A stretch of DNA of 64,000 bases from positions 11,753 to 75,752 of the IMG/VR virus record IMGVR_UViG_3300032236_001802, one strand, 5' to 3'. This document shows positions 4,236 to 10,196 of the stretch, one piece after another; within the stretch, counting starts at the first letter, position 1; each line of letters opens with the position of its first letter. The position numbers and the translations under genes were made by a program. Source of the stretch: a virus. A model generated the notes under the pieces. It was not told where the DNA came from, searched no databases, and saw nothing but the letters and a program-made list of their open reading frames with translations.

Positions 4236-5681
4236 CTATGAATCTAAATCCTCACTTTCCCTAAATAGTCGCTCAAGCTTTTGTCGGTTAGATTCTGGAG
4301 CATCACCCGAACCAGCAGACGGCGGAGTTGAATCAGAACCACTGGAACCCGTGGGGTTAGCCGTGGGGTTAGGGGGCTCGGGGTTGGGGTTGCTAGGCAT
4401 GGAAGGGTTGTACCCGGTAGGATTACCCTCAAGATCTAAACCAGGCAGACTGGCAGGGTACCAGCGCCCTTTTGCGTAGACCAGGGCCGGGTTTTTGACT
4501 GCACTCAGCAAAGCTGCCAGCTCACCCCTGAGCGCTTCATTTTGGCGGGTTCCCAATCTGTAGAAAATGGTATCGGCCATGATTTCCCCGATCGCCGTGC
4601 CGGGGAAAATAGCCACAGCCTTAGACCTGTGCTCCTGCGGAATGAATTCGGCGGCTGCCATAGAGACAGATACACCAATCAACCGCCGCCGAATTTTGCG
4701 GGTGAATGTACTGTACTTGAGCATCCATGGCCCCACAATATCCCGGCACCGGCCACGGGATTCCCGGATCCGTTTCTTATTGAGCGATCGCAGTTCGGAT
4801 AGGGTGTCCGGCGCTTCCTCCATGATCGTGACCCGCTCAGGGAACTCATTGCGCCCACCGCGAAACTCTTCAGCTTCGGCCTCAATATCCAGCAAATCCT
4901 GTTCCATGGAATCTAGGATCTGTTCGGCGTTGCACAGGAGGGTTGCCCCTTGCCATTCCGAGGTTCGCCCGTAGGCGTCCCATGCTCGGATCTGAGCTTT
5001 TAGGACGTGCTTTGATAGCCATTTGACGAACTTGGACTTACCCGCGCCCATGCCCCCGATTACCACGACCACGGGATAACGATCTATGTCCTTAAGATCC
5101 TCCCACTGGAAATAGGTTGAATTGGTCCCCTGGGTTGGATAGGAGATCGCCGGGTCCGGCTGCTGCATGGGTTGCCCTGGACCGGGCTGTCCTGCTGGCT
5201 GTCCTGCTGGCGGTTGATAACCCTGCCCCTGGTACCCTTGGGCCTGCATGATTGCCGGATAAGCGATCGGCATAGGATTCAGCATCCGCTCGATCTTCTG
5301 CATCTCCAATCGTGCGGGAAGGGTTCGCACCATGGCCTCGGCCTCCATCTGCAACACGCGCTCACGATAGTTAAGATCGCGCTCCATATCATCCTGGGTT
5401 TGGATTTCCTCAAGAGCATTTTCATGCTCTGCTTCAATGCAGATCATTTCTGCTGTTTTGTGCATTGACCAAAGTTCGGAGGGGATTTCACCCTTTTGAG
5501 CATTGCGTGCGCCCCAACCTGCCGCCGCCAGCCCCAGCACTAGGGGAGCAATCCGCCACGGGCGAGGGGTGGAAATCGTTACACCAAGCAACACGATCGC
5601 CGCGATCGCACATCCAAAACTGGTGGCCGCTAACCGCTCGGAGAGGTAACGGGATTCATCTGCTGATAATGATAAAGTCAT
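4236..5681 (-). CDS. membrane-anchored P-loop ATPase, FtsK/HerA-like
   Basis: Two N-terminal hydrophobic helices, coiled coil, Gln/Pro linker, Walker A GGMGAGKS, Walker B VTIMEE, downstream TRKIRRRLIGVS (Arg-finger-like). Confidence 0.7.
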   Translation of the reverse strand: MTLSLSADESRYLSERLAATSFGCAIAAIVLLGVTISTPRPWRIAPLVLGLAAAGWGARNAQKGEIPSELWSMHKTAEMICIEAEHENALEEIQTQDDMERDLNYRERVLQMEAEAMVRTLPARLEMQKIERMLNPMPIAYPAIMQAQGYQGQGYQPPAGQPAGQPGPGQPMQQPDPAISYPTQGTNSTYFQWEDLKDIDRYPVVVVIGGMGAGKSKFVKWLSKHVLKAQIRAWDAYGRTSEWQGATLLCNAEQILDSMEQDLLDIEAEAEEFRGGRNEFPERVTIMEEAPDTLSELRSLNKKRIRESRGRCRDIVGPWMLKYSTFTRKIRRRLIGVSVSMAAAEFIPQEHRSKAVAIFPGTAIGEIMADTIFYRLGTRQNEALRGELAALLSAVKNPALVYAKGRWYPASLPGLDLEGNPTGYNPSMPSNPNPEPPNPTANPTGSSGSDSTPPSAGSGDAPESNRQKLERLFRESEDLDS

Positions 5682-6046
5682 TACTTGATCACCTCTGGTA
5701 ACACCTCGGCGTAACAAATGAGTTGATTGGCCAGCATTCTAGCCACTTGGAGATCCTTGATCGCCGTTGGCAGATCCCTGCGGCAGGTTGCAGCAAAGCA
5801 ATCCTCTGCCGCTGTGCGGATCCAAAAGGAGAACTGAACATTTACCTCATCTGGCAAAACTTTCAGCAATCCAGAGATCAAGGTGTGGTAACCCTCGATT
5901 AAATCCTCTAGGCCGCTGTTTTCGTTAATGATGACGAGCGCGTAACGCTCACAGAGCCGATTTACAGCCTCATGGGCATTTAGGCGATCGCTGGTTTTCG
6001 GTGGGTGGTATCGAAACATTTGCGCGAGCTGGGCTTCAGAATACAT
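5681..6046 (-). CDS. Acb2/Tad1-like helical-hairpin protein (putative cyclic-nucleotide sponge)
   Basis: N-terminal FRYHPP...AHEAV and C-terminal AIKDLQVARMLANQLI resemble the F-YH-P...L-EA-MWAN-AI signature; the middle is longer than usual. Confidence 0.55.
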   Translation of the reverse strand: MYSEAQLAQMFRYHPPKTSDRLNAHEAVNRLCERYALVIINENSGLEDLIEGYHTLISGLLKVLPDEVNVQFSFWIRTAAEDCFAATCRRDLPTAIKDLQVARMLANQLICYAEVLPEVIK

Positions 6047-6048
6047 AG

Positions 6049-6456
6049 TTAGATCCCTAGGATTAATTTGATTGTCAGTGCCAGGATATAGAGCAAAAAG
6101 GTGTCGGTCAGGAAATCAGCGATCGCTACCCTGAAATTGCGCCGTAACCGCTCATGTTTGACATTTAGAAGCGGCTTGTAGCGGGCGATCTGAACAGCTT
6201 CAATCGTTTCGGCGTCATACAGGGATAGGCATGTCTGATAGTACAAACGAACGCCCCAGAATCGGGAGATTGAGGCAAGTTTTTCATGATTCTGCCATCG
6301 TTTCTGGAGCGAATCAGCTTTGCCGATGTAGACCACGGGAGCTAAAGGGTTCCACCATTGGATTGCATAATAAACCCCCGGTTTGGGCGGTAACTTGTTT
6401 CGGTGGCGTAGGGGAACAGACGGCTTGAGTGTTAGGGGTAGCAGAAGTCGGCGCAT
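6049..6456 (-). CDS. GIY-YIG nuclease with C-terminal hydrophobic helix
   Basis: PGVYY...VYIGKADSLQKRWQNH...E...YKPLLN; ends in FLLYILALTIKLILGI. Confidence 0.8.
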   Translation of the reverse strand: MRRLLLPLTLKPSVPLRHRNKLPPKPGVYYAIQWWNPLAPVVYIGKADSLQKRWQNHEKLASISRFWGVRLYYQTCLSLYDAETIEAVQIARYKPLLNVKHERLRRNFRVAIADFLTDTFLLYILALTIKLILGI

Positions 6457-6465
6457 GATTCCCCC

Positions 6466-6696
6466 CTAAACGATCCAAAGGATCACGCCAAGCGCGATCG
6501 CCCCGGCACTGAGGAAGCCATAAGGCTTTAGCTCATCGCCCAGCAGTAGGGTGAATCCCAGGGCGGCAATGATCGTGGCAGGCATAATGACGATGCCCCT
6601 TGGAAGCGCTGAAAGAGCGCCATGCAGGAGCGCAGAAAGAAAGATTCCGCCGATCATGAAACAGACGATTTTAAGCACTTCCAATAGTTGGGTCAT
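6466..6696 (-). CDS. small multi-pass membrane protein
   Basis: 76 aa, almost entirely hydrophobic. Confidence 0.7.
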   Translation of the reverse strand: MTQLLEVLKIVCFMIGGIFLSALLHGALSALPRGIVIMPATIIAALGFTLLLGDELKPYGFLSAGAIALGVILWIV

Positions 6697-8766: not shown

Positions 8767-9068
8767 AGCTCGTAAACCCTCCTTAGGGCGAGTGGGTAGA
8801 GCCGGTTATAGGTGTCTCCGGCAAAGTTGCGGACTCCGGCATAGTGCAGCATGGCGCAAGTGGTCAGCCCAGCGGCAATCTGTAAATTGACCTCATCTGA
8901 GGAAGTTCCCCGGATTGAGAACCGAGAGCACCAACGGGAAAAGGTTGGGGCCGGGATGGGCTTACCCGCGATGTGTTCACACCATTCCCGCAGGTAACCG
9001 AGGGACAATCGAATTTCCTCCGGCGTAGTGGTGTGAGTTTCAGTTTCGCGTGTGAAAACTTGGGGCAT
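8748..9068 (-). CDS. hypothetical protein, possible HTH DNA-binding protein; first gene of the ATPase operon
   Basis: IPAPTFSRWCSRFSI resembles a MerR/Xis-type recognition helix; AAGGA before the ATG. Confidence 0.5.
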   Translation of the reverse strand: MPQVFTRETETHTTTPEEIRLSLGYLREWCEHIAGKPIPAPTFSRWCSRFSIRGTSSDEVNLQIAAGLTTCAMLHYAGVRNFAGDTYNRLYPLALRRVYELCQVQN

Positions 9069-9230
9069 GATCCTTGATTTCTGGCGGTTTTAGAGTTTCA
9101 TGTGTGAAAAAATCCGAAACTTAAATAAGAGATTAACACAGGTTTTGGAGTTTTCACCGTTTTTCTGTCGGTGTTTTGTCGGGTTGATAGCGGCTTGCTG
9201 TACGATAGGAACACCTGAAAGGTGTGTGAT

Positions 9231-9545
9231 ATGGCAAAACCCGAATCTATCCGAATTGATATCCGAGTAACCCCGAAACAGCTTGAGCGGGCAGATGACC
9301 TGGCTAACGCTTTGACAAGCGATCGCCCGGACGTAATGAGAACGGCCTTGGATCTGGGTTTTGATCAGTTGGAGCTTCGGCAGTTGCAGCACTGGCAGTA
9401 TTTGAATGCCAAGCTGGTCAATGCGAAGCTGGGAGGGCGGCGGCAGAACATAGCCGATGCCCTGGATCTGCTTACTCAGGATGGCGAGGATCTTGAGGGC
9501 CGGATTAAAAAAGTAATTGCCCTACTTGAAGGGGCGATCGGTTGA
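9231..9545 (+). CDS. ribbon-helix-helix-like regulator, divergent from the ATPase operon
   Basis: SIRIDIRVTPKQLERADDLA...RPDVMRTALDLG fits the RHH strand-helix-helix pattern. Confidence 0.6.
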   Translation: MAKPESIRIDIRVTPKQLERADDLANALTSDRPDVMRTALDLGFDQLELRQLQHWQYLNAKLVNAKLGGRRQNIADALDLLTQDGEDLEGRIKKVIALLEGAIG

Positions 9546-9680
9546 TGCGATCGCGTTGACCAAGAATTTGAGGGTGGGCTGCTGCTGCACTACCTCATAC
9601 CCATGCCAGCCCACCCAAACCCCGCCGCCAAAGGTTAGGGTTAGGGGGATTAAGTAGCACACTAACTTAATGATTTTCAT
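9522..9680 (-). CDS. 52-aa single-pass membrane protein
   Basis: Below the ORF-track cutoff. MKIIKLVCYLIPLTLTFGGGVWVGWHGYEVVQQQPTLKFLVNAIASTDRPFK, starting 3 nt after the upstream stop. Confidence 0.6.
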   Translation of the reverse strand: MKIIKLVCYLIPLTLTFGGGVWVGWHGYEVVQQQPTLKFLVNAIASTDRPFK

Positions 9681-9683
9681 GGA

Positions 9684-10196
9684 TTATCCCTTTTTGCGCG
9701 CCCGCACGGGAGGGGCCGGGGATGGTTGGGGAGCGGGTTGGGCTTCAATCCTGGCATCCTCCAACCGCATCAACCGTAACCAAGCGGCGTCCAATCGGTT
9801 GGATTCGGAGATCTGCCGCGCTCTGATCTCACTCCAGCCTGCGAACCCTGTTGCCAGCAGCAACCCAGCGATCGCCGTCAGGGTCCAAGCCGCTTTGGTG
9901 ATCTTGAGATGCTTGGCAGGGTTCGGTTGAGGGTATTCCAGAGCATTGAGGCGATCGTTCAGACTATCGCCCTCGACTCTGGTCAGATAGTCTTGCGTCA
10001 TCTGGAGTTCGATCAACTCCAATCGATTGGATAACAGGGTTAGCTGTTCGCCCTGTATGGCGAACCCAACATCAGACGAGCCTAACCGCCTGTGTATGGC
10101 CTGCAAGTCGGCTCGGGTAACGGGAGGCAGTTCTACCGTTTTAGGCTCCTGTGTTTGTTCAATCTCGGTTTCTGAAATCTTTGAAATCTTGAGCAT
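9684..10196 (-). CDS. coiled-coil protein with one transmembrane helix
   Basis: AWTLTAIAGLLLATGFAGW; GGAG RBS before ATG 10196. Confidence 0.7.
   Translation of the reverse strand: MLKISKISETEIEQTQEPKTVELPPVTRADLQAIHRRLGSSDVGFAIQGEQLTLLSNRLELIELQMTQDYLTRVEGDSLNDRLNALEYPQPNPAKHLKITKAAWTLTAIAGLLLATGFAGWSEIRARQISESNRLDAAWLRLMRLEDARIEAQPAPQPSPAPPVRARKKG

Follow-up and report, generated by a model that had tools for sequence, protein, structure and literature searches.

What does a compact block of ATPase and membrane-protein genes do inside the genome of a tailed phage? The question is raised by a stretch of viral DNA of 64,000 nucleotides (nt), hereafter the window, which comprises bases 11753–75752 of the IMG/VR virus record IMGVR_UViG_3300032236_001802, a linear record of 75.7 kb with an estimated completeness of 77%. 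In this window, ten minus-strand open reading frames (ORFs), here called the module, run from position 9068 to 4236 and end in a membrane-anchored P-loop ATPase. The record is a tailed phage of filamentous cyanobacteria, encoding Phage_tail_L, a lambda gpJ-type tail tip, a tape-measure-size ORF of 3254 amino acids (aa) and DnaB. The original prediction, made from the sequence of the window, had proposed an analogue of the TraB, Spd and Kor proteins by which Streptomyces plasmids move double-stranded DNA (dsDNA) between cells. The module is real, conserved and unnamed, and its motor is an FtsK-branch membrane ATPase. The job that we consider most likely, with slightly less than even confidence, is to pump the dsDNA of the carrying element across a membrane or septum for transfer or spread of that element.

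A coupled operon shared by distantly related phages

The tightly coupled, leftward ten-gene operon that had been predicted is borne out by the layout of the ORFs (4236–9068, minus strand). All junctions fall between a 19-nt overlap and a 9-nt gap and include ATGA-type overlaps, and the stop codon of the gene for a 121-aa protein overlaps the start codon of the ATPase gene (TAATG). Directly after the ATPase stop, an intrinsic-terminator-like hairpin on the minus strand (4202–4230), with two GCGATCGC arms and a T-run, closes the operon.

Related copies indicate that these genes belong together. A contig from a cyanobacterial metagenome-assembled genome (MAG; L002) represents the same phage type and matches the region over its full extent, tail L and phrog_645 genes included, at 84–95% identity. 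Two IMG/VR records (L005 of genome G004 and L006 of genome G005) carry eight of the ten module genes in the same order at 28–54% identity, with the 121-aa and 35-aa genes absent and one gene inserted. In L006, the ATPase stop is followed by a hairpin comparable to that of the window. The provirus G005 measures 78.8 kb, and its ATPase has the same sequence as a chromosomal protein of Leptolyngbya boryana (P0006). Outside the module, similarity between the two phages is limited to a terminase, one capsid-region gene, a portion of the tape measure and some replication genes, with 25–33% identity. No other block is as well conserved between these distantly related phages, which argues for a selected functional unit, and the search for co-occurrence proposed with the original prediction thus ended in a collinear eight-gene block in a second, distantly related provirus.

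A small regulator is encoded divergently from the operon (9222–9545, plus strand; probable ATG start at 9232), as had been predicted. Its assignment to the ribbon-helix-helix (RHH) class is supported by a visible N-terminal strand-helix-helix pattern and by RHH genes holding the same divergent place beside related ATPase operons (locus L031, pCC7120zeta and a Calothrix plasmid), but the Pfam match to RHH_1 is weak (E 0.068). A 17-nt direct repeat, AGTTTCnnGTGTGAAAA, occurs twice in the divergent promoter region (9042–9058 and 9094–9110, 52 nt apart) and is a possible operator, and the RHH-like protein is probably the repressor that controls expression of the operon.

An unnamed membrane ATPase of the FtsK branch

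The ATPase gene (4236–5681, minus strand) encodes 481 aa from the ATG at 5681; its ORF is open to a TTG at 5717, and the homologue P0001 begins at an ATG equivalent to that at 5681. Walker A (GGMGAGKS, residues 221–228) and Walker B (IMEE, 298–301) motifs are present. In the AlphaFold2 (AF2) model (pLDDT 82.7), the N-terminus forms a transmembrane (TM) helical hairpin (19–49/56–80) and continues into a long coiled-coil helix of ~90 residues to ~146, followed by a disordered linker rich in proline and glutamine (147–200), a compact core (203–435, pLDDT above 90), a disordered proline-rich tail (436–476) and a short acidic C-terminal helix (477–488). The motifs and the hairpin match the earlier description of a P-loop ATPase with two TM segments. 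Both the model and a 65-row alignment of the ATPase family (A2) contain a single ATPase core, with none of the tandem domains typical of EssC and EccC. Invariant positions in the alignment are G226 and K227 of Walker A, D247, W255, E301 and P425, while E300, R340, K341 and R364 are conserved in at least 90% of rows. R340 and K341 lie just before the strand at 344–350 in the model, and this position makes them a candidate arginine finger before the sensor strand.

Structure searches gave as best match TcpA of plasmid pCW3 (PDB 6o1x; Z 15.6, 212 residues aligned, root-mean-square deviation 3.6, identity 12–16%), followed by EccC (Z 14.0; 13–14 for EccC/EssC), FtsK (12.8), DndH-C (12.6), VirB4/HerA (11.1), the STIV2 packaging ATPase B204 (11.0), RecA/Rad51-type proteins (~9–10) and Zot (9). 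Foldseek E values for the fold matches ranged from 2e-5 to 3e-4, and a Nodularia phage protein was among the best viral matches. The modelled core is thus of the FtsK/HerA superfamily and nearest to its FtsK branch, which answers the structural check suggested with the original prediction: the fold is of FtsK/HerA type, with TcpA, EccC/EssC and FtsK as nearest neighbours. Sequence profiles did not name the protein. The Pfam family FtsK_SpoIIIE (PF01580) had no match to the window ATPase, the sole match being AAA_16 at 24 bits, below the cut-off; no NCBIfam model names the ATPase or its family, and a sequence search of PDB returned P-loop noise only.

Membrane proteins, a nuclease and orphan proteins around the motor

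Searches of all ten module proteins against Pfam, PHROGs and PADLOC gave sub-threshold hints only. None of these databases matched any relaxase, VirB4 or other type IV secretion system (T4SS) family in the module, in agreement with the earlier reading, and PADLOC 2.0 returned matches at noise level only (mad8, E 0.002 over the P-loop; PDC-S14, E 6e-4 over the GIY motif). TM segments were called by hydropathy.

Two genes upstream of the ATPase, a minimal GIY-YIG nuclease of 135 aa is encoded (6049–6456, minus strand). It has the conserved residues of the motif (GVY, YIG, R, E and N) and, at residues 111–129, a C-terminal hydrophobic helix, a tail that its homologues in L002 and L006 share. Against the PF01541 cut-off of 22.6 bits, the window protein reaches 18.6, and its 46%-identical homologue in L006 passes with 24.0, so that the TM-tailed GIY-YIG protein first recognised from the sequence can be retained. 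Between this gene and the ATPase gene lies that of the 121-aa helical protein (5681–6046, minus strand), which is translationally coupled to the ATPase. It is present in L002 and absent from L005 and L006, a distribution that marks it as an accessory gene limited to this phage lineage. An earlier label of Acb2/Tad1-like protein is not supported: the match to Acb2_Tad1_hairpin reaches 19.9 bits against a cut-off of 27 and stretches a 58-position model over residues 13–107, the structural neighbours in the Atlas are unrelated helical bundles, and the L. boryana module does not include this gene.

Further membrane proteins precede the nuclease gene, all on the minus strand. A 76-aa protein with three predicted TM helices (6466–6696) has homologues in L002 and L005/L006, and a 35-aa protein with a single TM segment (6693–6800) has one only in L002; both had been predicted as membrane proteins, and hydropathy agrees. 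A 138-aa protein (7973–8389; 41% identical in L006) has one TM helix near its C-terminus. The remaining proteins are soluble or of no known family. They comprise a partly coiled-coil, soluble 225-aa protein of no known family (6804–7481; 47% identical in L006), for which an Atlas search gave no usable lead, a 163-aa protein (7485–7976) with no known family and an unusable AF2 model (pLDDT 47), a 124-aa alanine-rich helical protein, likewise without known family (8392–8766), and a 106-aa, putatively helix-turn-helix (HTH)-like protein (8748–9068). The last is encoded by the first gene of the operon, contains a conserved TFSRWCSRF stretch and is the best conserved protein of the module, with 54% identity in L006. 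Word-index searches for homologues of the 225-aa and 106-aa proteins returned the near-identical lineage only.

The ATPase family in mobile elements of filamentous cyanobacteria

The ATPase has relatives well beyond these phages. A word-index search found eight unnamed relatives, among them the L. boryana chromosomal protein, and a profile search of 1.8 billion representative sequences found 162 proteins, 49 of them with E below 1e-30. Pfam matches among 65 family members were to HerA/DUF87 (9), AAA_10 (7), P-loop_TraG (6) and FtsK_SpoIIIE (3; weak, best E 3e-4), and an N-terminal TM segment was predicted in 61 of the 65. Taken together, the fold, the Pfam hints and the TM anchor point to a family of FtsK-like ATPases that has no name, is anchored in the membrane and is built like TraB, TcpA and coupling proteins. 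One member of the alignment carries an HTH, and a distant member (L034 9154–10515, minus strand, genome G339) has a zinc-ribbon tail of IS1/IS1595 type (NF050000, E 8e-9, above cut-off). Such tails in some members fit DNA as the substrate.

Within the databases searched, the family appears to be confined to filamentous cyanobacteria and, in them, to mobile elements. Of 401 cyanobacterial genomes chosen from across the phylum, 13 had a match to the family profile with E of 1e-20 or lower. hetR is a marker of filamentous cyanobacteria, and all 13 positive genomes were among the 101 hetR carriers (hypergeometric p 9e-9, without correction for phylogeny). The hosts known by name are Leptolyngbya, Alkalinema, Nostoc, Calothrix, Tolypothrix, Moorena, Pseudanabaena and Allocoleopsis. 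In the neighbourhoods examined, the ATPase gene is the last of an operon of small ORFs and nearly always has a gene for a protein of two to four TM segments directly upstream; genes found repeatedly nearby encode a tyrosine integrase, a VapE/DUF3854 primase-helicase, a ParM-like (ALP_N) protein and, divergently, an RHH protein. Loci with an integrase are, judged from their gene content, small integrated elements; in L031, for example, a host molybdopterin oxidoreductase gene abuts the integrase.

Small plasmids carry the same family. A tblastn search with one ATPase of the integrated-element type found ten plasmids, all from filamentous genera and all typed as non-mobilizable. For example, the 6.4-kb pNOS7524.02 of Nostoc PCC 7524 encodes RepA, a small integrase, four small genes and the ATPase, the 5.6-kb pCC7120zeta encodes a CopG-type RHH protein and the ATPase, and a 23.8-kb plasmid of Calothrix 336/3 contains an ATPase operon. 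pNOS7524.02 is close in size to pDU1, quoted as 6.1 kb (PMC6933252). Further plasmid copies occur in Tolypothrix, Moorena and Pseudanabaena. The Pseudanabaena plasmid pPg_01 has a small-gene ATPase operon and, on the other strand at a distance of ~3 kb, a gene for a DUF3854 primase-helicase, and the Pseudanabaena plasmid ATPase is named a T4SS coupling-type protein by NCBI; apart from this one case, the small-plasmid ATPases are annotated as hypothetical or ATP-binding. The link to small plasmids and filamentous hosts that had been proposed for survey was therefore found for the wider family, on small plasmids and integrative elements from hetR-positive genomes or filamentous genera.

The small-plasmid operons resemble the module in having an ATPase of the same family by profile as last gene, an RHH gene nearby and no typed relaxase. 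In contrast to the module, they have three to five genes and lack the nuclease, and their ATPases are placed elsewhere in the family. Maximum-likelihood analysis groups the phage-type ATPases in one supported clade of 13 rows, and the half of the tree that contains this clade has no plasmid sequences. A metagenome scan with a 9-row alignment found one locus of the integrative-element type and one fragment only. Among GenBank phages (50,697 records), neither blastn of the region nor tblastn with the phage ATPase and three other family members gave a match.

Possible partners of the GIY-YIG nuclease near two distant ATPases (L034 and L035) were also considered, and the link was judged weak. The first candidate is a GIY-YIG protein with a different tail, encoded 2.6 kb off and on the other strand, and the second matches only the non-nuclease tail of that protein.

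DNA translocation as the favoured function

TraB of Streptomyces is an FtsK-like translocase that moves unprocessed dsDNA. Spread of the plasmid through septal cross-walls is the task of hydrophobic, translationally coupled Spd proteins, among them the pore-forming SpdB2; the lethal transfer gene is restrained by a divergent repressor (Kil-Kor regulation), and SpdB2 homologues occur in some actinophages (PMC2440964, PMC4447253). For dsDNA conjugation driven by one FtsK-like motor, PMC2440964, PMC3218068 and PMC4447253 give no examples other than actinomycete plasmids and integrative elements. We rank DNA translocation first because the layout of the module and the elements that carry its ATPase parallel this system. 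As in the TraB/Spd/clt systems of pSVH1, pIJ101 and pSAM2, one membrane-associated ATPase, FtsK-like in fold and architecture, is the sole motor, it is encoded with coupled, small and often hydrophobic orphan proteins (here with TM proteins of 76, 35, 138 and 135 aa as the counterpart to the Spd layout), and a gene for a small, probable repressor lies divergently. The ATPase family likewise occurs on small plasmids and integrase-bearing elements of multicellular bacteria, and no relaxase or VirB4 was detected.

The differences are also clear. The phage ATPase has neither a match to FtsK_SpoIIIE nor the C-terminal clt-recognition domain of TraB, there is no 8-bp repeat array in 3400–10600, the regulator is RHH-like rather than GntR, and a membrane GIY-YIG nuclease is added. 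In addition, the host is a Gram-negative-type cyanobacterium, and the carrier is a tailed phage. The small proteins showed no detectable kinship to Spd proteins, with no Spd sequences compared directly. Of the Streptomyces analogy, the fold, the coupled operon and the carriers stand, while the family match, the clt domain and the type of regulator do not, and no repeat array was seen in 3400–10600; the module appears to be functionally analogous to TraB and Spd and not a member of their family. TcpA of Clostridium perfringens pCW3, the best structural match, acts together with the products of a complete Tcp conjugation locus, a VirB4-like ATPase and a relaxase among them, whereas neither type of family was matched in the module and the related plasmids are typed as non-mobilizable. 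The literature searched on TraB/AICE-type transfer (AICE, actinomycete integrative and conjugative element) in cyanobacteria, on FtsK-like phage genes and on the functions of pDU1 and pCC7120zeta contained no description of the module.

In the proposed mechanism, the module would form a complex in the cytoplasmic membrane whose engine is a ring-type FtsK-branch ATPase, presumably a hexamer, held by its N-terminal hairpin and coiled-coil stalk. Around it would be arranged the polytopic 76-aa protein, the small membrane proteins, the membrane-tethered GIY-YIG nuclease and the soluble orphan proteins, with expression controlled by the divergent RHH-like repressor. The nuclease might supply an end or nick, and the ATPase would then pump the dsDNA of the element, allowing its passage between the cells of a filament or between filaments. 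We infer that DNA is the substrate and that transfer is from cell to cell. The more specific proposal, that the phage genome passes along the filament without virions by a plasmid-type, TraB-like dsDNA apparatus, and that pDU1-type plasmids and integrative elements represent a parallel-evolved, relaxase-free form of conjugation, is more doubtful, and we offer it only tentatively.

Several observations weigh against DNA pumping and transfer. The phage ATPase lacks a folded C-terminal DNA-recognition domain (AF2, residues 436–493), no clt-like array of short repeats occurs within 3400–10600, where only the two-copy 17-nt repeat is present, and by the model the protein translocases EccC and EssC fit the ATPase fold almost as well as DNA translocases do. 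A nuclease beside an FtsK/HerA ATPase is typical of defence pairs that degrade DNA and not of TraB systems. Phage and plasmid ATPases are only remotely related (pairwise E 6e-5 and 2e-4), tblastn with the phage ATPase found no match in plasmids, and no accessory gene is common to the phage module and the operons of plasmids and integrative elements. The hetR association may reflect the host range of the elements rather than function. Finally, none of four families of wall hydrolase (Peptidase_M23, Phage_lysozyme, Amidase_2 and SLT) is encoded in the 77%-complete record.

Alternative functions

The alternative that survives best is superinfection exclusion or defence against competitors, in which the ATPase would catch entering DNA at the membrane and feed it to the GIY-YIG nuclease, thereby protecting the resident element. 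This would account for the nuclease, which is membrane-anchored like the ATPase and its neighbour in the operon in both phage lineages. An FtsK/HerA-type ATPase with a nuclease or other effector is an established defence design, and the structural matches include Sir2-HerA, HerA-DUF and DndH-C. Exclusion genes are found on every kind of mobile element, and the module lies in an accessory region of the phage with DNA-modification genes adjoining. HerA-NurA, Sir2-HerA/Nezha and DndH share with the module an ATPase of the same superfamily encoded beside a nuclease (Z 9–12.6); however, their ATPases are soluble and of the HerA branch, whereas both partners in the module are membrane-anchored, and PADLOC models match it at noise level only. 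Moreover, the nuclease is not found in most family operons of plasmids and integrative elements, ten coupled genes are many for such a function, and it would be unusual for a 5.6-kb plasmid to devote most of its coding space to exclusion. Exclusion also predicts no link to filamentous hosts, yet such a link was found. We consider it unlikely as the principal function but nevertheless a serious competitor to DNA translocation.

Retention of the element at cell division is less probable still. Here, a motor at the closing septum would clear plasmid or episomal phage copies to one side, with no transfer between finished cells. In its favour, FtsK-type translocases are the closest in fold to the ATPase, several loci have a ParM-like (ALP_N) gene at the start of the ATPase operon, and the sequencing depth of the L. 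boryana element, 2.0–2.5 times that of the neighbouring chromosome in four runs, fits an episomal or replicating state. FtsK and SpoIIIE themselves share with the ATPase a membrane anchor, a RecA-type core, Walker A and B motifs and a conserved arginine before the sensor strand, but the core of the ATPase is much smaller (~230 aa), without an alpha subdomain of FtsK size or a gamma winged HTH, and is encoded by a mobile element. Small multicopy plasmids need no such help, their hosts have an FtsK of their own, the module also occurs in integrated elements, and the nuclease and the many small membrane proteins would be left unexplained.

An envelope or export machine, in which the ATPase exports small helical proteins as EssC and EccC do in type VII secretion or else aids lysis and egress, is equally improbable: EccC and EssC domains match at Z 13–14, several module proteins are small and helical and, in the L. 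boryana copy, a small gene and then a Peptidase_M23 gene follow 3′ of the ATPase, but the protein has only one ATPase domain, lacks an FHA domain and is not built of several domains as EssC and EccC are, some family members have DNA-binding tails, plasmids and integrated elements do not lyse their hosts, and the 77%-complete record encodes no wall hydrolase of the four families named above.

If DNA translocation is the function, filamentous cyanobacteria would provide a second, independent case of dsDNA conjugation by a single FtsK-like motor, and this mode of transfer would be tied to multicellular growth. It would also explain the persistence and spread of plasmids typed as non-mobilizable, including the pDU1-sized plasmid of Nostoc PCC 7524, and the presence of the module in a tailed phage would suggest that a phage genome might spread without virions. 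Should the module instead be a membrane ATPase-nuclease device for exclusion, it would represent a new defence design. L. boryana and Anabaena are genetically tractable, making the question directly testable.

Genomic setting and additional observations

Upstream of the operon, the second leftward pair of membrane-protein genes described in the original prediction exists as two minus-strand ORFs, a 52-aa ORF (9522–9680) with a TM helix and a 187-aa ORF (9684–10247). Neither has a homologue in L005/L006 or the other related loci, and their membership of the module is doubtful.

On the other side, the module adjoins a tail L gene, a phrog_645 gene (DNA/RNA metabolism in PHROGs) and a complete preQ0 gene set, QueC/FolE/QueD/QueE (291–2631, minus strand). 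DNA methylases and a glycosyltransferase are also encoded in the record. No member of the Phage_integrase family was matched in the record of the window (G000), G004 or G005, though G005 is classed as a provirus.

In the L. boryana-type provirus (G005; L006 1–20000), a ~50-kb contig carrying the module and phage genes had 2.0–2.5 times the word depth of the flank to the left of an IS1 element and of other long contigs, in four runs that come from one study and are probably DNA. The element may thus be episomal, replicating or duplicated. The other record of this lineage, G004 (50.2 kb), is about the same size as this contig. A joint in L006 from 5854 to 11217, which skips exactly the module, was not accepted as a deletion variant and is read as an assembly artefact because it is carried by short contigs at two palindromic hairpins that flank the module.

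In elements without a tyrosine integrase, proteins of ~380–400 aa without Pfam match recur near the ATPase operons (L026 7082–8284, L028 11950–13089, L040 16576–17697 and L050 5423–6232), and this family may represent an unrecognised recombinase.

The G+C content of the module region (4001–10000) is 53–55%, compared with 48–50% in the flanks on either side. As similar values are reached elsewhere in the phage, this is no clear sign of foreign origin.

The Phage_tail_L gene (3487–4179, plus strand) is the only one of the record and stands isolated on the plus strand, flanked by the ATPase operon and by the phrog_645 gene that heads the preQ0 operon. It lies ~27 kb from the gpJ-like gene (31657–34857) and the tape-measure-size ORF (42036–51800), and the same placement is seen in the MAG contig L002.

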